Below are positions 1,646 to 45,749 of a stretch of DNA of 64,000 nucleotides, one piece after another. The notes below the pieces were generated by a model. That model was given only the letters and a program-made list of their open reading frames with translations, was not told where the DNA came from and searched no databases. Within the stretch, counting starts at the first letter, position 1. Every line of letters starts with the position of its first letter. The position numbers were made by a program, and so were the translations under genes. The stretch comes from Thalia democratica. Lineage: Eukaryota. The stretch covers positions 42,036,001 to 42,100,000 of the forward strand of contig OZ241831.1 in the NCBI GenBank assembly GCA_965202585.1. The letters run 5' to 3'.

Positions 1646-4085
1646 TAGGGGTGGGCAACGTAAATAGTTGACGGGCCGGATCCAGAAAAATATAGTCCTC
1701 AGCGGGCTGGATCATTTCAAGTTAGTGATCTTTTGGATTCACCTAGATCCTTTTTTAAATCCGGATCCCATTTTAAACATATTATCCGGATCCAGCTAAA
1801 TACTAATTTTAGACAAAGATCTGGACCCGAATGGAAGCTAATTTCAAAAAGATTTTGATCCGGTTGGATGCTTATTGACCGGGTATTTCAGAATTTTGAT
1901 TCAATATATTAATTACCAAGGTTCTAAAGTATAAAATTTTGTATTAAATTTAGTTAAGTATTCATAATTCTATATATATTATAAATCTGGACCGAATTAA
2001 CACTAGTTAGTACTAAAAAAATTATAATTTGGTTACTAAAAGCTACTCGAGCCTAAATTTCAAGCTAAAACATAAAAAACTGCTACATATTCGAAATAAA
2101 TTAATTTTGGAAATCCTTATCTGGAGTTTATCTTGATAATATTTTTTCAAAAAATAACAAACAATACAATATTAAACTACTATTATTTAATTTAGATAAG
2201 CTAAAGAAGACTCATTACATTTTTTTGCATGTATAAAAGAAACAAAACATAATTCTGATATAATAAACGGTTTTACCATAAAAAGCAAAAAAAATAAATA
2301 AAAGATCTCGATGAAACACTTAAGATTAATCATGTATTAGAGTTGCATGACAGTTTTGGAAAATCTGCAAGTGCACTGAAATACCGATAAGGTTTGAAGT
2401 TAGCTCATCCTTGTCAATATTTATGGTTGGAAATGTTTGTTTTCAAATGTATGAAGTATCAAACAACACAAATAGTTCCATGGTCATCTTTAGAAGTTGA
2501 CAAACTTATGCTCGATCAATAATACATAAAATCTATCTAAAAATCTTATAAAAGCAACAAAAATTATATGTTTGATTTCAAATCGTCTTATTAAGTTATT
2601 TAAAAAAAGGAAAGCCTAGATAACAAATTACTTTGGCTTGAAATTTTAACACTTTTACTTTCAAAATATCAAATAGTTATAATAAAATTACTAAGTTTAA
2701 CTAAATTCTGTACTTTGAAAGTATTATTATCAAACAGTGCAGCTAAAATACTTTAATAAGAGTACTAACATAAAATAACGAAATATTGAAACAAAAAAGA
2801 AATTGATATATATTTTTAGCACAACAAATATTTTAGTTTGATAGACTTTTAGAGTAAGAACGATTTCACTAGTGAGTATATTACTAAACGAATAACTAAA
2901 ACATAAAACTGTCATATTATACTTTATGTATTAAATTAAAAAAACTTAGCAAGAACAATTACACTAAAAAGAAGTCAATGAGACATTTATGGATCGTAAA
3001 AGTTTTTAACAAGTTGTTTAAAATATGGAAGTTTACTTGAAGTAAATATTCTCAGTAATTACTGCAAATTCGTATAAGTAAGATTTGAACACAGCATACT
3101 TTTGTTTATATACATGGTTAAGAATGTTTGTTTGCAAAAATATGTAGACCCAAACAGAAAAAAATAACTTTATTATCATCTTTTTTAAATTAACAAACTT
3201 TGACTTCTTATGTAAGTCATAAAATCTGTCTATTTTTCAGTTTTCAACTTTTCTTTTTGTGTACTGCCGCATTGAAGTTCAACAGTTCTAACAATATTAC
3301 TAAGTACAAATTCGGTGTCAAACGTCGACGGTGATGAAATAATGTCGAATTCTTCATTTAATTGTTAAAAGTCTGCAAAACGACGACCAAACTTAATATC
3401 AAGTGAAACTGTTGTCATCAAATGGTCATCACTAAATTTAACCATATATATAATCAAAAAGTCCTTAATAAAAAAACAATAGCAGAAAAAGTGCAAATTG
3501 TAGTTTAAACTTAAAACATTTGACAAAAATTTAAATTTGAGCAATTTGACTTAAAAAATTTGTCGATGTTTAAAAAGATATTTTTTTTTTACTTTTTTAA
3601 ACATTTAAAAAACAACTCAATACTTATCTGCAAAAGACAGCAATTTTTGACACGTCTATTTTTTATGAAAACATTATGGTAAGTAAGATCATCAAAATTA
3701 TTTCAGCAAACAATTGCTTTTAAGTAATTTGAGAAAGGATTACTTCAACTGACTTGAAACAGAACAAAATATTATAACAAAGTAGTGTTTTATCACCACA
3801 AAATAATAGGCTATTTAAACAAACGTTTTCAGGGTCAAAGTTTTACAGTTTGTTTAATGAAATAGTTCAAAAAAGGTTTTGTACAAGTTTTGTAATAATA
3901 AAATTAACTGGCCGGATTTTGTATAAATTTTGAAAACGCTTAGCGGGCCGGATCATCCACTTGTGGGCCGGATCAATGTTGTCTGCGGGCTGGATTCTAT
4001 TTAAAATTAAAAAAAAAATTGGGAGCCGGTCATTTTCACTCTGCGAGCCGGATCCGGTCTGCGGGCCGTACGTTGCCCACCCCTA
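1646..4085 (-). mobile_element. Non-autonomous hAT DNA transposon (SPIN/Charlie-like), copy A
   Basis: Perfect 17-bp TIR TAGGGGTGGGCAACGTA...TACGTTGCCCACCCCTA. 8-bp TSD ccttattt/ccttatat (7/8). Subterminal GGCCCGC/CCGGATCCGG motifs. Reverse complement of 10023-12473. Confidence 0.92.
2975..3395 (-). pseudogene. Degraded hAT transposase C-terminus (dimerisation region) in copy A
   Basis: Manual minus-strand translation in broken frames gives KFGRRFADF*...VELQCGSTQKEK...KQTFLTMYINKSMLCSNLT...LLRIFTSSKLP...MSH*. This fits the SPIN/GTF2IRD2-type pattern RFxDF...ELQC...KEKF...CEQxFSxMxxxKSxxRSxLT...LRIxTS...SH*. Confidence 0.75.
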
Positions 4086-8535: not shown

Positions 8536-8987
8536 ATGTCAGTCCAAATCAATGCCAAAATGTAAATAGGAGCAAAAAGTTACAAAAAGCAGACAGCAAG
8601 GAAGACCGTTATTAGCAGTATCCCAACCAGAAACACGTTGAAATAATTTGCTCCGCTCAGCATCAATTTACGATCATCGAGCAAGCGAAAATGGAAGCGA
8701 ACCACGTTAGACGGAAAATTCAAAGTTAAAAGGACATTCCAGGAAAGACCAGACGACATTTATGATCTTTACTACAGATATAGTCTGGATAGGCATCACA
8801 TTTGGACTAACAACCTAGTGATTAACAGTGATACTAAGACAGATTATTCACTGATTGGACCTTAGTTTGGAAGATTTGGAGAAGTGCAATCAGGAATGTC
8901 TTGACGATCCTGAAAGTCATTTTTACTTGATTGGTCTTTGTGACGAAATAGGTCATGGACTGTTTGCAAGGCATGCAATAGCAGCAA
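8536..8987 (+). pseudogene. SET-domain methyltransferase paralog, exon 1 (disrupted)
   Basis: Colinear with 44792-45251. ATG at 8536, TAA at 8563 (CAA in the paralog), TAA at 8644 (AAA in the paralog), frameshift at ~8836-8857. Encodes KSYKKQTARKT and IGHGLFARHAIAA. Donor A|GTTAGT at 8988. Confidence 0.85.
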
Positions 8988-9110
8988 GTTAGTTTCAATG
9001 TTTTAAACTGTTTTCTAATTTTTGTTTTGTTATAGTGTAAGGTTTGACTAAAAAGTTTTTAAAGTACACTAATGACTTAGATATTCGTCTTAACGATTGG
9101 TTATTTTCAG

Positions 9111-9487
9111 ACACAATAATAGGAGAATACACTGGTGAAGTAATTCCCATAGAAGAGTATTATAAAAGATTGGATGAAATGGAACAATCAGGAGCTACCA
9201 ACTACTTTTTTGAAACATGCTGCGAAAACATGAAGATAGACGCGGGCGCAATGGGCAACCATACCAGGTTCATCAACCACGACTGCGGAGATCAACTGAA
9301 CTGCAAAACCGAATACGCATTAATTGACGGCATTCCTAGGAACTTTGTCATCAGCAAGTGTTATATTGAAGCTGACGAGCAACTCTTCATATGGTACAGA
9401 AAAGAATATTTTTATTTTAGCGATACGAACTGTCTTTGTAAATCTAGTAATTGCTTTTCGAAAAACTGTAAAAAGAGACAGGAATAA
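9111..9487 (+). pseudogene. SET-domain methyltransferase paralog, exon 2 (open frame)
   Basis: Acceptor ttattttcag|9111, phase 1. Encodes IIGEYTGEV, IDAGAMGNHTRFINHDC, EQLFIWY and post-SET CLCKSSNC. AATAAA follows the stop. The ORF-track start at 9044 is intronic. Confidence 0.88.
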
Positions 9488-10022: not shown

Positions 10023-12473
10023 TAGGGATGGGCAACGTACGGCCCGCGGGCCGGATCTGGCCCGCAGAGTGAAAATGACCGGCCCCCAAACCTTTTTTAA
10101 TTTTAAATGGAATCCGGTCCGCGGACAACATTGATCCGGCCCGCAAGTGGATGATCCGGCCCGCTAAGCATTTTCAAAATTCATATAAAATCCGACCAGC
10201 CAATTTAATTATTAAAAAACTTGTACAAAACCGTTTTTGAACTATTTCATTAAACAAAACTGTAATACTTTGACCCTGAAAACGTTTGTTAAAATGGCTT
10301 ATTATTTTGTGGTGATAAAACACTATTTTGTTATAGTATCTTATTCTGTTTGAAGTCAGTTGAAGTAATCCTTTCTCAAATTATCCAAAAGCAATTGTTT
10401 GCTGAACTAATTTTGATAATCTTACCTACCATAATGTTTTCTTAAAAAAAAGAAGTGTCAAAAATTGCTGTCTTTTCCAGATAAGTATTGAATTGTTTTT
10501 TAAATGTTTAAAAAAGTAAAAAAAATATCTTTTTAAACATCGACAATTTTTTTAGGTCAAACTGCTCAAATTTAAACTTTTGTCAAATGTATTAAGTTTA
10601 GACTACCATTTGCACTTTTTCTGCTATTGTTTTTTCATAAAGGACTTTTTGATTAATTAAATGGTTAAGTTTAGTGATGACCAATTGATGACAATAGTTC
10701 CACTTGATAATAAGTTTGGTCGTCTTTTTGCAGACTTTTAACAATTAAGTGAAGAATTAGACATTATTTCATCACCGTCGACGTTTGACACCGAAAATGT
10801 ACTTAGTAATATTGTTAGAACTGTTGAACTTCAATGTGGCAGTACACAAAAAGAAAAGTTCAAAACTGAAAAATTGACAGATTTTAAGACTTAATTAACA
10901 AGTAAAAGTTTGTTAATTTAAAAAAGATGACAATGAAGTTATTTGCTCTGTTTTAGTCTACATATTTTTGCAAACAAACATTCTTAACCATGTATATAAA
11001 CAAAAGTATGCTGTGTTCAAATCTTACTTATACGAATTTGCAGTAATTACTGAGAATATCTACTTCAAATAAACTTCCAGATTTTAAACAACTTGTTAAA
11101 AACTTTTATGATCCAAAAATGTCTCATTGATTTCTTTTTAGTGTAATTATTCTTGCTAAATTCTTTAAACTTAACATTTAAAGTATAAAGTGACAGTTTT
11201 ATGTTTTAGTTTTTCGTTTAGTAATATTTTCACTAGTGAAATCGATCTTAATCTAAAAGTCTACTAAACTAAAATGTTTCTTATGTAAAAATATATATTT
11301 ATTTCTTTTTTGTTTCAATATTTCGTTATTTTATGTCAGTACTCTTATTAAAGAATTTTAGGTGGACTGGTTGATTAATATTTTTAAAGTACAGAATTTA
11401 GTTAAATTTCGTAAGTTAATTATAACTTTTAGATATTTTGAAAGTAAAAGTGTTAAAATTTCAAGCCAAAGTAATTTGATATCTAGGCTTTACTGTTTTT
11501 TAAATAAGTTAATAAGAAAATTTGAAATCAAACATATAATTTTTGTTGCTTTTATAAGATTTTTAGATAGATTTTATGTATTATTTATCGAGTCAAAGTT
11601 TGTAAACTTCTAAAGATGACCATGAAACTAGTTGTGTTGTTCGATACTTCATACATTTAAAAACAAACATTTCCGACCATAAACATTAACAAGGATAAGC
11701 TATCTTCAAACCTAATCGGTTTTTCAGTGCACTTGCAGATTTTCCAAAACTTTCATGCAAATAGATTTAAACAACTCTAATACATGATCAACTTTAAGTG
11801 TTTCATCGAGATCTTTTATTTATTTATTTTTTGCTTTTAATGGTAAAACTGTTTATTATATCAGAATTGATTTTTATTTTGTTTCTTTTATACATGCAAA
11901 AAAATGTAATGAATCTTCTTTAGCTTAATTAAATTAAATAACAGTAGTTTAATATTGAATTGTTTAATAATTTTTGAAAAAATATTATCACTATAAACTC
12001 TAGGTAAGGATTTCCAAAATTAATTAATTTCGAATAGTTAGCAATTTTTTTATGTTTTAGCTTGAAATTTTAGGCTCGAGTAACTTTTAGTAACAAAATT
12101 ATATTTTTTCTAGGACTAACTAGTGTTAATTCGGTCCAGAGTTAGAATATATATAGATTTATGAATACTTAACTAAATTTAACACAAAATTTCATACTTG
12201 AAAACCTTGGTAATTAATATATTGATTCAAAATTCTGAAATACATTAGCACCTGGCCGGATCCAAATCTTTTTCAAATAAGCATACGTTCGGATCTGGAT
12301 CTTTGTCTAAAATTAGTATTTAGCCGGATCCGGATAATATGTTTAAAATGGGATCCGGATCTAAAAAAGGATCCAGCTGAATCCAAAAGATCACTAACTT
12401 GAAATGATCCGGCCCGCTGAGGACTATATTTTTCTGGATCCGGCCCGTCAACTATTTACTTTGCCCACCTGTA
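10023..12473 (+). mobile_element. Non-autonomous hAT DNA transposon (SPIN/Charlie-like), copy B, inverted relative to copy A
   Basis: TIRs TAGGGATGGGCAACGTA / TACTTTGCCCACCTGTA. TSD gactacaa/gactacat (7/8). Transposase remnant KFGRLFADF*...VELQCGSTQKEKF at ~10700-11130 shares the stop after ADF with copy A. Confidence 0.92.
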
Positions 12474-13572
12474 GACTACATGAATCTTTAGTAGTTTTGT
12501 TTTAATAGTTAATCATTTAATTGAAAAGAAGAAAATACTAATTTTTACTAGATTAGTTTTTTTTAGCTATGATGAACATAAAATATATTGGTAATTGCCT
12601 TGCATGATTGCGGACCAATATCTAGCTGAAATTAGCTTTTCCCCCTTTTTGCCTCAAGTGAAATTATTAATTTCTTTTGGCCATATTAAATTTTTTTCAA
12701 AAGAAAGTTTCAAGTTTTATATTTAATTTTTATATTAATATTAATTTCTTAAAGTTTACACTCAAATTTTTTAATGGATAATTTATAAGGCATGAATCTA
12801 GAATAACAATAAACATGTGAATATAATATATGTTTACTATATGCTATATTAGTATGTTAAAAAAAGATGCAATTTAAACTGTATGTATTTAATATTTAAT
12901 AACCTATGCAATTAAATCGTATTGCAATTAACATACTGTAATTAAACTAATTTTTCAAATTTAATATACAAACAATTTAATACTAATATGCAACGATTAT
13001 TAAACTTATGATTTTATTAAATTTGGAAACAATGTAAACTAAATTACCGCAATTTTTAATTTTGTTAACATTTTTAAAAACAATAATGACTTAATTTAAT
13101 TAGTAAATTGAATCACTGATCATTGAATATGAAGTATTATTTATTATTTGTTTTATTATCCTTATTTTTCTTGTAAATACTTTTTGCTTTTTACATTTAG
13201 TTTTACAAAATTATGTTATTAATATATCTTATTTTTAATTATAAGTTTATTTTTACTTAATTAGTAGTTATTTATTGCTATTATATTACACTTTGCTTAT
13301 TCTTGAATTAATATCACTGTAAAACAGTTTTAGCTTTATGGTTTGTTTACAAAATGTTAGCATATGTCCTAATAGAAAAATCTGTCAAAAGTAGTTGCGT
13401 TCTTTTTGAGTCTAAATTCATATGAAGTTTATAAAATTAACAATTCTATTGCGCTTAAGTTAACTTACTTTAAGCTTTATTTTGGAGATTGTAAAAAAAC
13501 TTGTTAAGTTTTAAATCGATGCCACGTTTTTAATAAAAGTGCTTCAAAAATTTATTTAAATTTCAAATTACC

Positions 13573-14440
13573 TGTTATGTGATAGTTGTATTGATTACGA
13601 TCTACTGTGATGTGATAGTTGTATTGTTGCAATCTACTGTGATGTGACAGTTGTATTGTTTGCAGTTTACTGCGATGTGATAGCTGTAGTGTTGCAGTCT
13701 ACTGTGATGTGACAGTTGTAGTTTTGCAATCTACTGTGATGTAATAGTTGTATTGTTTGCGGTCTACTGCGATGTGATAGTTGTATTGTTTGCAGTCTAC
13801 TGTGATGTGATAGTTGTAGTGTTGCAGTCTACTGTGATGTGATAGTTGTATTGTTTGCAGTCTACTGTGATGTGATAGTTGTATCGTTGTAATCTACTGT
13901 GATGTGACAGTTGTAATTTTGCAATCTACTGTGATGTGATAGTTGTAATTTTGCAACCTACAGTGATGTGACAGTTGTATTGTTGCAATCTACTGTTATG
14001 TAATAGTTGTATTGTTTGCGGTCTACTGCGATGTGATAGTTGTAGTGTTGCAATCTACTGTGATGTGATAGTTGTATTGTTACAATCTACTGTGATGTGA
14101 TAGCTGTAGTGTTGCAATCTACTGTGATGTGATAGTTGTATTGTTCACGATCTACTGTGGTGTGATAATTGTATTGTTTGCAGTCTTCTGTGATGTGATA
14201 GTTGTATTGTTTGCAGTCTACTGTGATGTGACAGTTGTAATTATGCAATCTGCTGTGATGTGATAGTTGTATTGTTGCAATTTACTGTGATATGATAGTT
14301 GTAGTGTTGCAGTCTACTGTGATGTGATAGTTGTATTGTTGTAATCTACTGTGATGTTATAGTTGTAGTGTTGCAGTCTTTTGTAATGTTATAGTTGTTT
14401 CATTGCGATCTACTGTGATGTTGTAGTTGTATTGTTGAGA
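13573..14440 (+). repeat. 32-33-bp minisatellite (TCTACTGTGATGTGATAGTTGTATTGTTGCAA), about 27 copies
   Basis: Head-to-tail units with point variants and no spacers, read directly. Confidence 0.97.
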
Positions 14441-14583
14441 TCATAACTTGAAGCTTACATTTAATGTCTGTAAGATAAAACTCCTCTTTATGATATAATG
14501 ATTTTTTTTTTGAGAACTTATGATTTTTTAATATATGACTAAGATTATATATGACCATTTGATAGATACTATTAATGATGATA

Positions 14584-15520
14584 GGGTGTCACTTTTGCAC
14601 GACCGTCACTTTTGCACGAGCGTCACTTTTGCACGAAGGGACACTTTTGCACGGCGACACCTTTGCACGAGCGTCACTTTTGCACGAGGGGACACTTTTG
14701 CACGGCGTCACTTTTGCACGCAGGGTCACTTTTGCACGAGGGGACACTTTTGCACAGCGTCACTTTTGCACGGTCGTCACTTTTGCACGAGGGGAAACTT
14801 TTGCACGACGACTCTTATGCACGGAGGGTCACTTTTGCACGAGGGGACACTTTTGCACGGCGACTATTTTGCACGGAGGGTCACTTTTGCACGAGGGGAC
14901 ACTTTTGCACGGCGACTCTTTTGCATGGAGGGTCACTTTTGCACGAGGGGACACTTTTGCACGGCGCCACTTTTGCACGAGGAGACATTTTTGCACGGCG
15001 ACATTTTTTCACGATGACAATTTTTTTACGGCAGCTTTGTTGCACAACGACACTTTTGCACGGAGAGTCACATTTGCACGAGATGACTCTTTTGCACGGC
15101 GTCATTCTGCACTAGGAGACTTTTCTGCATGCAGGGTCATTTTTGCACGAGGAGACACTCTTGCACGGCGACATTTTTTCACGATGACAAATTTTTATGG
15201 CAGCTTTGTTGCACAACGACACTTATGCACGGAAAGTTACTTTTGCACGAGGGGACGTTTTGCACGGAGGTACATTTTTGCACGAGGGGACTCTTTTGTA
15301 CGGCGTCTTTTTTGCACGAGGAGACAGTTATGCACGCAGTCATTTTTCTTAGAGGAGACACTTTCTCTAGGCGACATTTTTTCATGATGACAACTTTTTA
15401 CGGCAGCTTTGTCGCACAACGACACTTTTGCATAACGTCACTTTTTTAAGAAGAATTTTTACACAGCGACATTTTGGCACTATGACTTTTTCGCATGGAA
15501 CATCAATTTTGCAAGAAGAC
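14584..15520 (+). repeat. Solo long left arm of the TTTTGCACG foldback-like family
   Basis: Starts GGGTGTCACTTTTGCACG and continues in ~16-18-bp units. A longer block (gcgacattttttcacgatgac...gcacaacgacac) recurs at ~14998, 15168 and 15371. The end resembles the inner end of the 5371 left arm (tttgcacgaaggctgattaaatgc). No partner arm nearby. Confidence 0.9.
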
Positions 15521-18272
15521 CAATTAAACGCCTTTTTTAGATTTATAACATATAGAAAAACATAAATCTATTGCGTGCGTTTTTTTATTATATTTAAAAA
15601 ATGTACTCAGATAAAATTTTATATTTTAATGGATTGATAATATAAATTGAAACCTATTTCTAACTTTTAAATAAAAACTTTTGTATTAATTTTTTTCTAA
15701 AAATCTCAATTTAATAACAGTGTACAATATAAAAATCAAAAAAATTGTTTTTTTAGTAGTCTTTAAATTCTAATTGTTAGTTATAATCATGCGCAAACTA
15801 CTACATTTTTGTTACAGTTAACTATTAACTATTAAAACTATTAATTATAAATCAGTTTATAAATTTCAAGACTACGTTATATTTTAATATAGAATAGTTT
15901 TTTAATTATAGAAAAAAACAACTAAGCAATTTATTTTATACCCAGTCATCATTTATTTATTGTTTACAATTTAAAAGATCCACAATAAACGAACAAAAAG
16001 ACGTCTGTCTAAAATGTCTGAAGTAAGTTTCTGATGAGTTGCAGTGAAAGTATATTAAAAATTTTATGAAAAACATTGATTGTTATTTATATAGGTAAAA
16101 ACTATAGTAGACTTATGTTTTTAATTAAAAAAAAAATATATAAAATGTAAAAAATTTCTTTAACATTGTTATATATTGTTAATATATGATGTTCTTAAGT
16201 ACCCATAAGGTGTAGCATTTTTTTAGCTTACTAATTACTATCGCTAATATCTCTTAATCAAAGTAAATTTCGGTTGTTTTGATAATATTATCTGGTATAT
16301 ACTTTTGTAATTATATCAGAGGTTAGGTTAATTTTGTTCGTTTTTAAAATTACAATTGGATATGTGAACATTTTAATATTCTTTTCAAACTCGTGAAACG
16401 TAAATACAATTAAGTATCCTTTAGCTGCAGCTTTTTTGTTGAATACTTAGTAATGCATATATCTCTTAATTTAAGTCAACTTCGGCCGTTTTCACATTAC
16501 CATCGGATAGTCAAGACTCTAAGCTACATTTTAAGATGCTTACTATAGTCGTGTGACTAGAGATAAAGATTATATAACATCTAAAAGTTTCTTAAAAATG
16601 TTATATTTGGTAATTTTAAAATTTCTTAAGTACTCTTAAGGTTCATCATTTTTAATTTTTATATATACTATCGCTAATATCTCTTCGTTTAGGTAAATTT
16701 CGGCAGTTTTAAATAATATAAGATCTCCTTAAGTATCCTTAAGGTGAAGCATTTTTATTTAGATTTATGCTATTGTATGTATATCTGAGGTTAGGACGAC
16801 TTGGGTCGTTTTAAAAAAACCATCGGATAGTTGAGTCTTATAGCAACATTTTAAGATGCTTGTCATTGTTATGTGAAGAGAGATAAAGATTATACAACAT
16901 CTAAAAGTATAATTTTACATTATTATTTCTTGTAAACACACGACTTTGTTAAGTGTTCTTAATGTCCAGCATATTTTGTATTTGAATTCGTACTGTTGCA
17001 TAAATCTCCGATGATAGGTTAATATCGGCACTTTAGAAATACCATCACATAGTAAAATTCTCTGCAACATTACAAAATACTTTTGTTTTTATCCACGACT
17101 AACAGTTGTTTATTTTCTAACTTTTTTAAAAGTATTATTATATATTTAAGACTTTCAGCGAAATTTTAGATGCTTGCCGGTTTTTCTTGATTAGAATTTC
17201 AGATTATAAAACCTTTAGAAGTTCAGTTTAACAAAGTTTCTATATGTTAACATACGATTTCTCAAAGTATCATAAAAGTTGAACTTTTTTTATAAATTCA
17301 CACTTTTGCATTTATCTTAGAGGTTGGATCGATGTTTTTAAAAACTCTCAGAAAGATGAGACTCTAATCAAGATTTTAAGATGCTCACCATTGTCGTTTG
17401 ACCAAAAATTAAGATTATTAAACACTTTTAAAACTAGTTCAACAGTATTATTATTCAAAAACATACCAATTCCGAAAATATATTTAAGGTGCAGCATTTG
17501 TTTCAAATGATTCTGATTATTACGTACATCTTTAAGGTAAGATTTAATTCAGCCGTTTTTAAACACTTTCGAAAAGCTACGATTTTAAGCACCGTCTTGA
17601 GATATATTTTATTGTCATGTGATCAAAAATTACAGTTATATAACATATAAATTTTTACCTTAACAATGTTATATTTTGTAATGTACGACTTCCTTCAGCA
17701 TGCTTAAATTGCAGCACTTTCTAGTTAAATTTATATTATTGCATATATATCTATTTTTAGCTCGGTTTCGTCCGTTTATCTAATTCACTGCTAAAATCTA
17801 CTGAAGCATATCAGAAATAGTGAGCTTGTTTTTTAGTTTTGTATTAGTCAGTAAACTTTTAATAACTATAACTATATTTGTAAATTATATAGTTTCAATT
17901 TATGTGCATGAGATTATGGATCGAATTCTGTTTTAACTTTTAAACAGATTTTTACATTCAACTCTTTATGACGTAACTATTTTTGCTAGATACTTAAAAA
18001 TTATTATATATTACTAAATTTATCCATATTCTTATCAGTTTTAGCGAGCGTATTCTGACGTTGTGCTAAAATAAATCAATCATTAAACTTTCAATCTTTT
18101 TAAAAATGAGTGATTTGTGTTTATACTTTTTAATAAAAACCAGAACAAAATAAAACTATTCTAAATATTAGTTATAGTTTTAACTTTTTCTTTCTGAAAA
18201 GTGACTATTACAAAAAAATGTATAAAATGTTTTGTTTTAATCTACAAATAAAAAAAAATAATCAATGAAAGT

Positions 18273-18535
18273 TTATTTTAGAGCTGTCAACTCTCCAATA
18301 GTTTTTAAGGCCTTAAACTTGTGGATACCCCTATTTGATGAGCTTAGGACTTTAAAATACATTGGTTTGTTATTTTCGTTGTAATTTAAGAGTTCGTCAG
18401 GAAGTTCAGAGAAATCAACTGGCGATGTTGGGTAAATTGTACTTTTCTGTTTCTGAAGAGTTGGACTGCTTCTCCTGTCAAGTTTATCTAACATATTGTA
18501 CTCCAATAGTTTTTGCCGAGTCTCAGCTTTTTTGT
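18273..18535 (-). CDS. Terminal exon of the zinc-finger gene fragment in the foldback spacer
   Basis: Acceptor tttttag|ACAAAA at 18535, phase 1. Open to TAA at 18273 (DKKAETRQKLLEYNMLDKL...GELTALK*). Confidence 0.6.
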
Positions 18536-18883
18536 CTAAAAATTTAATCTATTAAGTTTGTTGACTTTAAGTTGTTTTTTAAATAATAGTCCAAACTCTG
18601 ACGACTAATTTTCAGAATTAATATTTAATTTTTTGAAATTGTTAGTTGCTTTTTATTTTAATGTAAAATTACAAATTGTTTTACGTTGGTTGATGTAAAA
18701 TAAAGTTTATTTATGAGGAAAGGTATACCTAAATGAGGAAAACTACTTTAATAAAATATAAACTATAGATACAAAACAATGAATATTTACAATAAAGTTA
18801 ATGTTACAGTAGTTTAAGTAAATATTCATAAACTACTTAACTTCAAAAAACTTAATAGTATCATTTGGAAGTTTAAGACAAAC

Positions 18884-19123
18884 CTGAGTTATTTTGATTA
18901 TTCGTCTTATGTAAAAACTTTTTAGTATTACAACTTATAGAATCTCTCCAGTGAAGTTTTAAATTATAAGGCCCATTAAAACGTGAATCACAATTGTTGC
19001 ATACTAATAGGTTGGGCATGTACTTTGCGTGTACCGATGAAATATGCTTGATATAACAACTTTTATCATAAAACTTCAAGTAACTGCATTTTTGACTGAT
19101 TCTGCATTTGTAAGTAGTTGACC
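18884..19123 (-). CDS. Exon encoding a C2H2 finger and a C2HC-like finger
   Basis: Acceptor ttttttcag|GG and donor CAG|GTTTGT, 240 nt, phase 1-1. Encodes YKCRISQKCSYLKFYDKSCYIKHISSVH and VCNNCDSRFNGPYNLKLHWRDSISC. Confidence 0.75.
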
Positions 19124-19244
19124 CTGAAAAAAGCACAAAAAACTAAAATCTAAAATGGTAACAATAAATACTTGTAATCTATCTATAAACCTTAGGTTTA
19201 TTCGAAATTTTACCAAACAGTGATTAAGTACTACTATCACATAC

Positions 19245-19400
19245 TAAATAAACAACTTGAAGAAATAAAATCAAAAAAAGTTTCACTATTTTTGAAAATA
19301 AATGTGTTTAAGTTTAAAAAAACATTTTCAGAGATTGTAATAAAAAACACACCATTTGTATCAGTTTTATCTACCAAGTGAGCTGTACTATTGAAATTGA
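19245..19400 (-). CDS. Possible upstream exon of the zinc-finger fragment
   Basis: Acceptor tattttgcag| and donor A|GTATGT, 156 nt, phase 1-1, open frame, 121-nt intron to the next exon. No start codon or further upstream exon found before the right arm. Confidence 0.45.
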
Positions 19401-19444
19401 CTGCAAAATAGGTGCTCAACTTACACAATGTAAAGAGCTAAATA

Positions 19445-19480
19445 TAATAAATATAATAATAATAATAATAATAATAATAA
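19445..19480 (+). repeat. (AAT)n microsatellite
   Basis: Run of ataataataata... at the spacer/arm junction. Confidence 0.8.
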
Positions 19481-21194
19481 AATATAGTAATAATATTACG
19501 GACGAAATCGAGCTAAAACTAGATATATATATGCAATAGTATAAATTCAACTAGAAAATGCTGAATTTAAGCATGCTGAAGAAAGTCGTACATTACAAAA
19601 TATAACATTGTTTAAGTAAGATTTTATATCTTATATAACTGTTATTTTTGATCACATGACATTAAAAAGTATCTCAAGACGGTGCTTAAAATCTTAGCTT
19701 TTTGAAAGTATTTAAAAACGGCTGATATCAATCTTACCTTAAAGATATACGCAATAGTCAGAATCGTTTAAAACAAATGCTGCACCTTAAGGATACTTTA
19801 GGAAATGGTATGTTTTCAAATTATAATAGCGTTGAAGTAGTTTTTTAAATGTTAAATAACTCTATTTTTGTTCAAGCGACAATGGTGAGCATCTTAAAAT
19901 GTTGATTAGAGTCTAATCTTTCTGAGAGTATTTAAAAACATCGATCCAATCTCTAAAATAAATGCAAAAGTGTGAATTTATAAAAAAAAAGCTTCACCTT
20001 TATGATACTTTAAGAAATCGTATGTTAACATATAGAAACTTTGTTAAACTGAATTTCTAAAGGTTTTATAATCTTTAAATTCTAATCAAGAAATACTTAT
20101 AAGCATCTAAAATTTCGCTGAAAGTCTTAACAATATAATAATACTTTTAAAAAAGTTAGAAATTAAACAACTGTTAGTCGTGGTTAAAAACAAAAGTATT
20201 TTATAATGTTGCAGAGAATTTTACTCTGTGATGGTATTTCTAAAGTGCCGATATTAACCTATCAGCGGAGATATATGCAACAGTACGAATTAAAATACAA
20301 AATATGCTGAGCCTTAAGAACACTTAACAAAGTCGTGTGTTTACAAAAAATAATAATGTAAAATTATACTTTTAGATGTTGTATAATCTTTATCTCTAGT
20401 CACACGACTATAGTAAGCATCTTAAAATGTTGCTATAAGACTCAACTACCCGATGTTATTTTAACACAACCGAAGTCGTCCTAACCTCACATATACATAC
20501 AATAGCATAAATCTAAATAAAAATGCTTTACCTTAAGGATACTTAAGGAGATCGTATATTATTTAAAACTGCCTAAATTTACCTAAACGAAGAGATATTA
20601 GCGATAGTATAAATAAAAATGAAAAATTATGCACCTTAAGAATACTTAAGAAAATTTAATATTAACCAAATATAAAGTTTTTGAGAAACTTTTAGATGTT
20701 ATATAATCTTTATCTCTAGTCACACGACTATAGTAAGCATCTTAAAATGTAGCTTAGAGTCTTGACTATCTGATGGTAATGTGAAAACGGCCGAAGTTGA
20801 CTTAAATTAAGAGATATATGCACTAATAAATATTCGACTAAAAAGCTTCAGCTAAAGGAAACTTAATTGTATTTACGTTTCACGAGTTTGAAAAGAATAT
20901 TTAATGTTCACATATCCAATTGTAATTCTAAAAACGAACAAAAATAACCTAACCTCTGATATATTTACAATAGTATATACCAGCTAATATTATCAAAACA
21001 ACCGAAATTTACCTTAATTAAGAGATATTAGCGATAGTAATTAGTAAGCTAAAAAAATGCTACACCTTAAGGATATATAAGAACATCATATATTAACAAT
21101 TTATAACAATGTTAAAGAATTCTTTAACATATTATATAATTTTTTTTAATATTAAACACATAAGTCTACTATAGTTTTTACCTATATAAATAAC

Positions 21195-21893
21195 AATCAA
21201 TGTTTTTCATAAAATTTTTAACATACTTTCACTGCAACTCATCAGAAACTTACTTCAGACATTTGAAGTAGAACAATAGCTTTTTAAGTAAAAACAATAA
21301 ACTATAGAAAACAACTCAAGTAATTAGATTGCTGTAAAAAGTTATTCAACGAAAATCAAATAGTAATTAACGCAAAGAACAATCAATTAAAACTACAAAA
21401 CAAAATGTTTAACACAAGCAAAGACAATTTTAAGTAAATAAAATAACAAAGGAAAGTTTTAAACAAATAACCAAAAGAAACTTTTAAACGAACAAGGAAA
21501 CCTTATAGTCAAACTTTTTCTATTTATAAGTTAAAATACTGAAATTTCTTCTAGTTTGACCTTGGTTTTTTTATTCACTTATAAGTGTCTTTGTTTATGT
21601 AAAACGTTTTGTTTTGAAGTTTAAAATGTTTGTTTTTTGCGTTAATTACTATTGCATTTTTGGTAAAAAGCAGAACTAGACAGAGATATCAATCCTTGGT
21701 GGAGAGATATGAATAAATTTTGTACATTAATTGATTTTTGTTGATTGGTTTTTTACAGAAATCTAATTACTTAAGTAGTTTTCTAAAGTTTATTTTTTTA
21801 CTTAAAAAGCTATTGTTCTACTTCAAATGTCTGCAGTAAGTTTCTGATGAGTTACAGTTAAAGTATATTAAAACTTTTATGAAAAACATTGAT
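21195..21893. repeat. Second imperfect palindrome: ~21195-21455 vs ~21560-21893
   Basis: For example, cagacatttgaagtagaacaatagctttttaagtaaaa is mirrored by ttttacttaaaaagctattgttctacttcaaatgtctg. The right arm carries a ~60-bp insertion. Confidence 0.8.
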
Positions 21894-23509: not shown

Positions 23510-23858
23510 TTAGCACTTTTTCTTCTCGTTGGCGCAAGCTACTGACTTCTTGCACAAATGTGTAAATATCTGATCACACTTAAAAGTATGAATTCGTCCC
23601 CTTTTCAGAGCGGCGCAATTGAAGTTTTCCTTGCTCCAACCGCTGAAATCAGGCTCATTGTCAGCCCACTTAAACGCCAAATCCGTAGTGTTCAAGTTTG
23701 CCGTGGGAGAAGTGTCATCTGTGAAGGTGAAGTAGTTGTCATTTTCCGAACGCTCAGATGAAATGTTCTTCGTGCTAATGCCGATCCAGATTGAACCTTC
23801 ATCTTTGTATTGTGCGCGATGGCTGAAGATAGCAAGAATGGCTCTTTTTGAATTTTTA
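23510..23858 (-). CDS. C-type lectin, exon 2 (C-terminal half of the CTLD)
   Basis: Acceptor catttttcag|T at 23858, phase 2. Encodes IWIGIS (WIG motif), KWADNEPD, NCAAL, FKC...HLC, then stop. Confidence 0.85.
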
Positions 23859-25070
23859 CTGAAAAATGAAATGGTGGTTGACATTTATTTTTTATATTTC
23901 TACAGTTTAATGATTTCAATTTTATCTGTAACAAATTACTGGTTTTATTATGTCGGTTTGTATAAGTTTTACATTATAAATTATATTAAATGTTTTATTA
24001 AATGCTACAATATTATAATGTTTAAGTATTGTTTACAGTATTAAATATGCACTTTAAAACAGTTCATGAAATTTAATTTAAAAAAAATCAAATATTTTGG
24101 TTCTACTTTTATTTTTATCATTACAGTTATTTACTTTTTGCATATAAGTGATGTATATAAAAATGCATTACATGAAAAACCACTAAAAATTGTGTTTAAC
24201 TAATCATTGTATTTGAAAATACATTGTTAACTTAAATTTTTATCTTTTTTATTTCGTTTGTACTTAATTAGTAACTGCACCAGAGGTTTTTTTTTGACTG
24301 GTTTCTTGTTTCCTGTGAACCCCATGAAAAAAAAAGAAAAAAAGATTCTCAGATTATCACTAAAAACGTTGTTTATTGACCTTGTTTTGGTTATTTGATA
24401 AACTTTGAATAATGAATGTTGAATATATATATAACACTGAAAGATAAAAAGTTTCCTTAACAAAAAATGCTCCTTTTTGCTCAGCTGAAACATATTTTAT
24501 TTAAAAATTTCATTCGTGACGTCATAATAGGTAAAAGCTTTAAAATAGCACTTTTTTTTAGGAAACTTTATACTAAGATGCTTTTAGTTCCAACTATAAC
24601 TTGTTACTTAGTATAAACAAATTTTGATACAGTATTGTTTTTAAACTAGTAAGTAGAATTTTACTTAAAAAATGTCCAATTTAATTACTTAATTTTTTGT
24701 TACCAAGTTATTGTGTATAATAATGTTGTGTTAAGCTTTTGTACTTTAAAATTTATATTTTTTGTTTATGTGTCAACCAATTGGGTTCAAACCTTGAAAA
24801 GTTCAGTTTAGAGAGTTTTCAGTTAATCTTTAAACTACTACGCTTTGCTGGCAATTTATTATTTTATCAATAATTGGTATTTTGATAGTTTTTTATTTAA
24901 GTTGTTTTATTTTTTTATATCTGTTGGCCACAAAGTTGGTTCTTAATTTATTGAAATTTTTAAATTAGAGAGATTACAAAATCATTATTAGAATTCCTGC
25001 ACCATCAGGCAAACATTAAATTATAATTTAGAGATATTCTTATTTTGTTATAAAAGTCTAAACATTTTTC

Positions 25071-44791: not shown

Positions 44792-45251
44792 ATGCGAGTA
44801 AAAACAAGTTCCAATAAGCAAACAGGAATAAAAAGCTACAAAAAGCAGACAGCAAGGAAGGCCGTTATAAGAAGTGTTCAAATCAGGAATACGTTGAAAA
44901 AATTTGCACCACTCAGCATTAAAATACGATCGTCAAGCAAGCAAAAATGGAAGAAAATTGCTTGGGAGGGAAAATTCGAAGTTAAAAGGACATTCAAGGA
45001 AGGGCCTGACGACGTTTTTGATCCTTACTATCATTTCAATACAGAGAAGCATCATGTTTGGACGAACCACCTCGTGATTAGAAGCGATACTTATTTGGAT
45101 GAGATGAAACATGTAGCTTCTTTTATTGAACTGGATAGTTTGAAAAAGTTCAATCATGACTGCCTCGACGATCCTGAAAAACATTTTTATGTGGACAGTT
45201 TTAGTGGTAATATGGGCCGTGGACTGTTCGCCAAGCATGCTATACCAGCAA
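44792..45251 (+). CDS. SET-domain lysine methyltransferase, exon 1 (basic N-terminus with H3-like KQTARK; SET motif I)
   Basis: Open from ATG at 44792. Encodes KSYKKQTARKA and MGRGLFAKHAIPA. Donor A|GTTAGT at 45252, phase 1. Confidence 0.88.
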
Positions 45252-45381
45252 GTTAGTTTCAGATTTTTAGTTTTGTTTTTCATTTTACAACCTTTTTACG
45301 TCATAGTTTAAGTTTTGACTAGAAAATTCTTTTTGTAAACTATTAGCTTGGATATTAAACTTAGTAATTGCTGATTTTCAG

Positions 45382-45749
45382 ACTCAATAATAGGAGAGTA
45401 TACAGGCGAGCTTATTTCAAAAGAAAAAAAGACTAAAAGATGGCATCAGAATAAAGGGGCTACCAACTACTATTTCAGCACATGCACGAATTTTGATATT
45501 GACGCGGGCGCAATGGGCAACCATACCAGGTTCATTAACCACGATTGCGAAGAAAAATTAAATTGCAGGACAGAGTACGCTCTGATCAATGGAATTCCTA
45601 GGAACTTTATCATCAGCAAAAAAGCTATCAGAGCTAGTGAGCAACTCTTCATTTGGTACGGAGAAGGGTATTTTCGTGATTTTGATTGTGCGTGTAATTC
45701 AAAAAACTGCTTATCGAGAAACACTTCACTAGAGACCGAAAAAAATTAA
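45382..45749 (+). CDS. SET-domain lysine methyltransferase, exon 2 (catalytic core plus post-SET)
   Basis: Acceptor ctgattttcag|. The spliced frame is continuous (828 nt, 275 aa): NSIIGEYTGELI...IDAGAMGNHTRFINHDC...EQLFIWYGEGYF...CACNSKNC. AATAAA at 45765. Confidence 0.9.

Follow-up and report, generated by a model that had tools for sequence, protein, structure and literature searches.

The question raised by this locus is whether six residues that repeat histone H3 at the start of a small SET-domain protein are maintained as a histone mimic and, if so, what such a mimic would do for the protein that carries it. The gene lies in a 64,000-nucleotide stretch of the Thalia democratica genome (contig OZ241831.1, positions 42,036,001 to 42,100,000 of the forward strand), referred to here as the window.

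The window gene and its basic tail

The two exons listed in Table 1 join into an open 275-aa frame with a SET and a post-SET domain, as the first-pass annotation had proposed; exon 2 matched the Pfam SET model with an E-value of 4.7e-16 (59.6 bits, cut-off 22.4). The SET knot motifs, given as RFINHxC and ELxFDY in PMC3980110, the tyrosines and the CxCx4C were intact in 22 intact models of the family; in the window protein RFINHDC is present and QLFIWY246 is the ELxFDY-equivalent with the catalytic tyrosine. The protein is predicted from its sequence to be a SET-domain lysine methyltransferase. An aliphatic residue two positions ahead of the catalytic tyrosine leaves space for multiple methylation, and C256, C258 and C263 together with C209 presumably form a zinc site, as in SET enzymes.

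Table 1. Coordinates of the window gene, the broken paralog and the upstream element (positions in the window)
Feature	Position	Strand	Description
Exon 1	44792..45251	+	codons 1-153 plus one base; basic tail, pre-SET block, SET start
Intron	45252..45381	+	130 nt, phase-1, GT..AG, within SET domain
Exon 2	45382..45749	+	SET core (GEYTGE 158-163, RFINHDC 203-209, IWYG with Tyr246) and post-SET
Basic N-terminal tail, residues 1-34	44792..44893	+	net charge +10; about three degenerate K/S/R repeat units
KQTARK (K18-K23) = histone H3 K4-K9	44843..44860	+	
Family-specific pre-SET block, residues 35-132	44894..45187	+	LKxxAP ... HVWTxxLV ... LDDPE
Post-SET CxCx4C (C256, C258, C263)	45687..45710	+	
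AATAAA	45765..45770	+	15 nt past stop; likely polyadenylation signal
Broken paralog	8536..9487	+	stops at codons 10 and 37; frameshift near 8845-8860; intron 8988-9110
ATGACG(T) element			upstream of L010, L011, L021, L032, L054, L055, L073, L085, L089, L091, L100, L102, L105, L112, L115, L116

The claimed K-K-Q-T-A-R-K-A (K17-A24, 44840-44863) was read in frame, and its KQTARK matches K4-K9 of the genome's own H3 exactly. The likeness exceeds chance: when the 34-aa tail was shuffled 3000 times, an exact six-residue match to H3 1-40 arose once at most (p 0.0007), and the local alignment score of the tail to H3 1-40 gave p 0.003. The residue after the motif is Ala in the window gene, Thr in most close paralogs and Ser in H3. 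A genome-wide search with a KQTARK pattern that excluded a T- or C-starting codon after the motif yielded 44 matches, of which 18 fell in the SET family and one in an H3 variant; among 16 further matches inspected, eight read KQTARK, all in frames of 66 aa or less. H3 variants with altered tails (KQAAKKS, ARKTTGG, MAKTK) were encountered at L061, L062, L065 and L066.

The observation that the protein has neither a pre-SET or AWS cysteine cluster nor a reader domain was borne out by Pfam scans, and 275 aa leaves no room for a reader. Pre-SET gave no match in P0009, P0051, P0049, P0059 or window exon 1 (control L093, E 3e-10), AWS gave none in four of four full-length family proteins (controls P0077 and P0093 over the cut-off), and no chromo, ankyrin, Tudor or MBD domain was found. 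The first-pass annotation had overlooked a conserved, folded, family-specific block at residues 35-132.

In all 16 relatives examined, full-length or nearly so, the sequence continues across the junction found in the window gene. Most spliced relatives come from JGI records whose contigs measure about 0.9-1.3 kb, barely more than the coding sequence, and are therefore likely to be assembled transcripts. Since P0018 is 96% identical to the L011 model and P0050 99% identical to L073, some family genes of this genome are likely expressed. The window copy is a predicted gene: no spliced protein comes closer to its product than 65-66% identity, and this low identity, together with the missing ATGACG element (see below), counts against assuming its expression. 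Contigs crossing the window intron unspliced carried three variants inside the motif, all of which matched the broken copy L009 and are not independent of the paralogs; these contigs speak neither for nor against expression.

Regarding the second copy in the window, of which it had been said that the motif is retained while much of exon 1 has changed, KQTARKT is indeed present at 8587-8607, but the gene is broken; because its in-frame stops and frameshift make it a pseudogene, it cannot alone demonstrate selection. This paralog is flanked by a long inverted repeat pair (1650-4085 with 10023-12469); a second such pair and tandem arrays (13572-15519 and 16012-21264 among the repeats) are also found in the window, and the two inverted pairs show about 90% identity. 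Elsewhere in the window, a 233-aa frame on the minus strand (54606-55307) matched the PARP catalytic domain (PF00644, E 2.6e-8), and a 124-aa frame on the same strand (23510-23884) was C-type lectin-like by eye and had no Pfam match.

A large family and the conservation of its motif

The gene had been assigned to a small family; about 86 loci, broken copies included, were counted in the Thalia democratica genome, a lower bound in which hits within 3 kb were merged and 10 of which lie on small contigs and may be alternate haplotypes. In keeping with a tunicate host, the mitochondrial HSP70 of this genome is, among named matches, most similar to those of Clavelina, Phallusia and Ciona (85-87% identity). 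A profile search of 1.84 billion representatives returned 20 matches at E 1e-30 or better; the eight full-length family matches looked up were unnamed proteins, and the sole named match was a repeat-SET fish protein, aligned over SET only. No family relative was found in the prokaryote, viral and metagenome contigs searched, and a metagenome pattern scan recovered two chlamydial-type SETs and no family transcript. No long transposase-like frame was seen beside family loci (frames of at least 110 aa in eight flanking stretches, by eye). That the architecture had not been recognised as a described family agrees with the literature searched, in which neither family nor architecture was described; the search included the accessible parts of PMC11703355, PMC3980110 and PMC5240408, with supplements and most subscription papers outside its scope. 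In another part of the genome (C5, 68.87-68.98 Mb), L223-L229 form a seven-copy, 18-kb tandem array with a 378-aa open frame without family assignment.

In a core tree of 44 rows computed with the tail excluded, a basic-tail clade (24 rows, support 99/98) consists mostly of genes with one intron, and the other members are multi-intron genes with acidic or short tails. The pre-SET block of about 100 aa is common to all members of both clades. The suggestion that the mimic may be the main targeting module fails family-wide, as the N-terminal motif is missing in all 14 representatives outside the basic-tail clade and in nine of 20 inside it, while the block is present in all. A looser form, [KR][QRK][TPAL][AG]RK, drawn post hoc, was found in 11 of the 20 basic-clade representatives and in none of the 14 others. 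By its distribution, the family-wide module is the conserved pre-SET block, not the mimic. In the model of paralog P0009 this block folds together with the SET domain (mean pLDDT 74) and residues 1-38 have a pLDDT under 50, i.e., the tail is predicted to be disordered; in the P0051 model the tail is a helix over residues 10-46. The block has no zinc cluster and overlaps structurally with the N-flanks of ATXR5 and SETD2. P0049 (802 aa) contains two tandem copies of the pre-SET block and a SET domain.

Of 27 family genes, 15 carry an ATGACG element between 101 and 127 nt ahead of the start, and one more carries it at 169 nt. The element, which we take to resemble a CRE half-site, is present in both clades and deeply diverged members, against a background of 0.125 per kb in the window; the subgroup of the window gene is without it. 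A germline role of the element is speculation.

Within the group of the window gene, all 14 intact loci (10 distinct sequences) keep KQTARK. Across the 10 distinct intact paralogs all six motif columns were invariant, compared with two of the remaining 27 columns of the tail; apart from KQTARK, only the SET-core GEYTGE formed an invariant run of at least five residues (column permutation P 0.0007). This test covered paralogs with DNA sequence and so left out P0006, P0010 and the P0008 group, and the paralogs had been collected by similarity to exon 1, which contains the motif. Comparison of the window gene with L010, counted pairwise and not per branch, gave no nonsynonymous change at 14.3 sites and two synonymous changes at 3.7 sites within the motif, whereas the flanks showed pN of 0.32 and 0.46 and pS of 0.48 and 0.19, i.e., they evolve at about the synonymous rate. 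The uncharged Q, T and A are invariant, which charge alone would not demand. The pN/pS of the SET domain was about 0.25-0.45 in divergent paralog pairs. Among broken copies with a readable tail the motif was eroded in four of seven and still kept in three. Over codons 14-52, L008 and L012 resemble each other unusually closely, so that gene conversion may make the L012 group non-independent and may inflate the apparent conservation of the motif; the clean contrast is then that of the L001 group with L010 and L011. Judged by the invariant columns and the divergence of the flanks, the motif is conserved above its surroundings among paralogs, as would be expected of the proposed mimic, and KQTARK in the branch of the window gene is real and selected, with the exceptions given below.

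Several of these exceptions count against a mimic. P0006 and P0010 read KQTARN and have lost the K9-equivalent, the spliced P0008 group, nested in the clade of the window gene, reads KQPGRKS, and L083 is apparently intact and reads QKTGNK; the lysine is followed by Ala instead of Ser or Thr in the window gene and in L002-L006, and most basic-clade members have G in place of A in the motif. Other tails show more of H3. The motif occurs twice in L011 and P0009. In L010 and P0007 the tail extends into a segment resembling H3 K18-P30 and is collinear with H3 K4-P30 (alignment scores 84 and 82). P0051 starts MVRTK and has an extended H3-like tail, KQTARKTGGKARK, that matches several H3 pieces (score 74, p 0.0003); the core tree does not discriminate between an independent gain of the exact motif in P0051 and a shared one. 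In a separate clade, L089 and L090 end in KQTGRKST, which shares seven of eight residues with H3 K4-T11 (p 0.0007 by shuffling, for one among about 50 tails tested). Forcing L089 into the basic-tail clade was rejected (p-AU 0.018, for a grouping chosen after the tree was seen), and since this C-terminal copy falls outside the basic clade, a K9-like motif is placed at both protein ends in the family. The KQTGRK pattern had 15 matches in the genome, six of them in family genes and seven in an unrelated tandem array in which the motif is out of frame. C-terminal ARKT, ARKQ or ARKN, individually not significant, was noted in L097, L107, L052-L057 and P0060.

Enzyme class and origin of the SET domain

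The top sequence matches were to EZH1/2 (E 1.5e-14), with a slight margin over NSD3 and SETD2 and over SET residues 141-257 only. Assignment to the EZH/E(z) class was rejected, as CXC and the other PRC2-binding regions were not found and the family lies outside the EZ-like group in the tree; the SUV39/G9a/SETDB1 class was rejected for the absence of both the pre-SET zinc cluster and a reader domain, and the SET2/NSD/ASH1 class for the absence of AWS. The fold search with a paralog model returned ATXR5 (Z 15.0, rmsd 3.3, 180 aligned) tied with SETD2 (Z 14.8, rmsd 3.8, 185 aligned), with G9a at 12.9, and that with the P0051 model returned SETD2 (15.9) and ATXR5 (15.3); a viral fold search gave only generic SET matches. 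Although the plant H3K27 monomethyltransferases ATXR5/6 and the SETD2/NSD enzymes are the best structural matches, the family shares only 18-23% identity with ATXR5/6 and SETD2 and has no AWS or PHD match, and the fold gives no target lysine.

GNHTRFINH and YGxxY[WF] are shared with Chlamydiota-type compact SETs of the NUE kind and with fungal-looking compact SETs. Aligned to a profile of the Chlamydiota-type SETs, the family gave an hhalign E-value of 2.4e-38 with a match reaching upstream to family position 97, and GNHTRFINH was found in 44 prokaryote loci, mostly titled Chlamydiae and all SET proteins. A tree of 116 columns placed the family beside bacterial-type and fungal-looking SETs, apart from the canonical classes (SH-aLRT 89.5 and 92), in a quick search with biased sampling in which support for the grouping is weak. 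In the ESM Atlas the nearest clusters were Chlamydiota SETs at 0.95, no sign of transfer, and the pre-SET block alone stayed under 0.9. The Chlamydiota-type SETs, unlike the family, have neither the post-SET cysteines nor an H3-like tail; because of the missing cysteines, and because eukaryotic SETs score at least as well, we treat transfer as no more than a lead. We regard as unlikely the scenario in which a microbial, chlamydial-type compact SET was domesticated in the tunicate lineage and grew to about 80 genes under a CRE-like promoter element with repeated H3K9 mimics at either end, the product being a reader-less writer that enters heterochromatin only via its own methylated tail, or an HP1-titrating decoy in a germline conflict.

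Possible roles of the H3-like tail

Some sequence-specific mimic role for the motif is probable. In the mechanism proposed here, the disordered basic tail of the compact SET protein would present the copy of H3 K4-K9, K23 would be methylated by the protein itself or by host H3K9 enzymes, and the methylated K23 would be bound by HP1-type chromodomain proteins, so that the HP1-bound tail would tether the reader-less enzyme to heterochromatin. This reading, the favoured one, has a substantial chance of being correct, if somewhat less than even, and we put it forward tentatively; catalytic activity, K23 methylation, the reader and any chromatin role are the parts of it that we infer. Automethylation of ARKT in G9a makes an HP1 site (PMC2175347), and in SETDB1 the mimics of the unstructured regions are bound by the HP1 chromodomain once they carry trimethylation (10.1101/2025.01.21.634156), an H3K9-like lysine in a disordered region of SETDB1 being described as methylated and HP1-bound also in 10.1101/2025.10.22.683908. 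HP1-like genes are present in the genome, with seven chromo-shadow matches over the cut-off. The open frame L216:1-1665 is HP1-like, with two chromodomains and a chromo-shadow domain, and L093:1158-2264 is an intronless, divergent Suv39-like gene with chromo, pre-SET and SET domains. A complex prediction for the L216 chromodomain with the unmethylated 36-aa tail, run without an alignment, scored 0.01 and carries no weight as evidence. The fold searches, made with predicted models, do not favour an H3K9 enzyme, which would count against HP1 reading.

The main alternative uses of a specific motif differ in the partner of the tail. The tail might lie in the groove of its own enzyme and damp activity until automethylation frees it, as in Clr4, whose loop is the precedent (PMC9768651). 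The 11-residue linker between K23 and the conserved block, the doubling of the motif in some paralogs and the exact conservation of six residues, which suits an enzyme groove, are in keeping with this; given that the motif is also found C-terminally and that the predicted models leave the tail unplaced (P0009) or helical (P0051), both weak evidence, we consider such a pseudo-substrate in cis improbable. A partner that spans K4 to K9, e.g., a tandem Tudor domain of the UHRF1 type, or a decoy that titrates host H3K9 readers, would explain why the conserved span is exactly K4-K9 with a variable S10 position: in UHRF1 an acidic pocket of the tandem Tudor receives K4, a cage receives K9me3, and phosphorylation at S10 is tolerated (PMC10464304). 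Searching the genome for a UHRF1-type tandem Tudor gave no match, nor did the controls of that search. Tandem amplification and turnover suit a dosage or conflict role of a decoy. No direct evidence points to such a partner, however, and several paralogs carry the ARKT that HP1 binds in G9a; this alternative seems very unlikely. PHD binding of K4 involves A1-R2-T3; as the motif lacks these residues and lies inside the chain, a reader of the K4 type is unlikely.

Two further explanations do without a mimic. The tail may be a set of basic K/S/R repeats for nuclear localization or DNA binding, in which KQTARK is one point change from the commoner xxxGRK and was preserved through recent duplication and gene conversion. 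Repetition is visible in the tails, G rather than A prevails in the basic clade, five identical family copies lie in one 22-kb tandem array, and the conversion-like tract of L008 and L012, the motif retained in three broken copies and the lysine lost in P0006 and P0010 all fit; yet both flanks diverge while the motif stays constant with synonymous changes inside it in the L010/L011 comparisons, its uncharged residues are invariant and the adjacent K/R are not, and a second, C-terminal placement exists in another clade, which leaves this explanation rather unlikely. Alternatively, the tail could be the captured 5' end of a true H3 gene, decaying or repeating. The MVRTK start and multiple H3-piece matches of P0051, the collinearity of L010 and P0007 with H3 and the 960 histone-fold candidates in the genome speak for capture. 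Against it, the ATGACG element is common to acidic-tail, multi-intron members and was absent at that place in nine H3 genes examined, the 20 best hits were all intergenic repeats when 27 upstream-plus-tail regions were compared with 12 histone loci by blastn, and selective retention of the motif is left unexplained; capture is accordingly judged to have little chance.

Enzymes with an H3K9 mimic of their own are already known (G9a/GLP, SETDB1 and, with an automethylated inhibitory loop, Clr4), so that the principle is not new. Like G9a/GLP (EHMT2/EHMT1) and SETDB1, the family combines a SET enzyme, an H3K9-like motif in an unstructured region and post-SET cysteines; as in the methyltransferases with automethylated mimics, the motif is conserved, with exceptions, and many paralogs share the ARKT form of G9a. 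It differs from them in its length of 275 aa, in having no pre-SET cluster, ankyrin, Tudor or MBD domain, in a mimic of six exact H3 residues versus four in G9a, and in being lineage-restricted, with about 86 loci known here from sequence alone. As in Clr4 and SUV39H2, a lysine on the polypeptide that bears the SET domain may serve as a self-substrate in the family, whereas its motif lies in a terminal tail, not in an internal loop, and it has neither chromodomain nor pre-SET.

The family appears to be undescribed and represents a large, non-canonical SET expansion in a chordate. Known mimics of chromatin enzymes sit in a few large multi-domain proteins, in which their role is hard to isolate, whereas in a 275-aa enzyme the mimic is the only obvious link to readers. 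As the family also offers natural variants in which the motif is absent, single, doubled, changed from A to G, deprived of its lysine or placed C-terminally, the use of a mimic to a writer would be directly testable in it.
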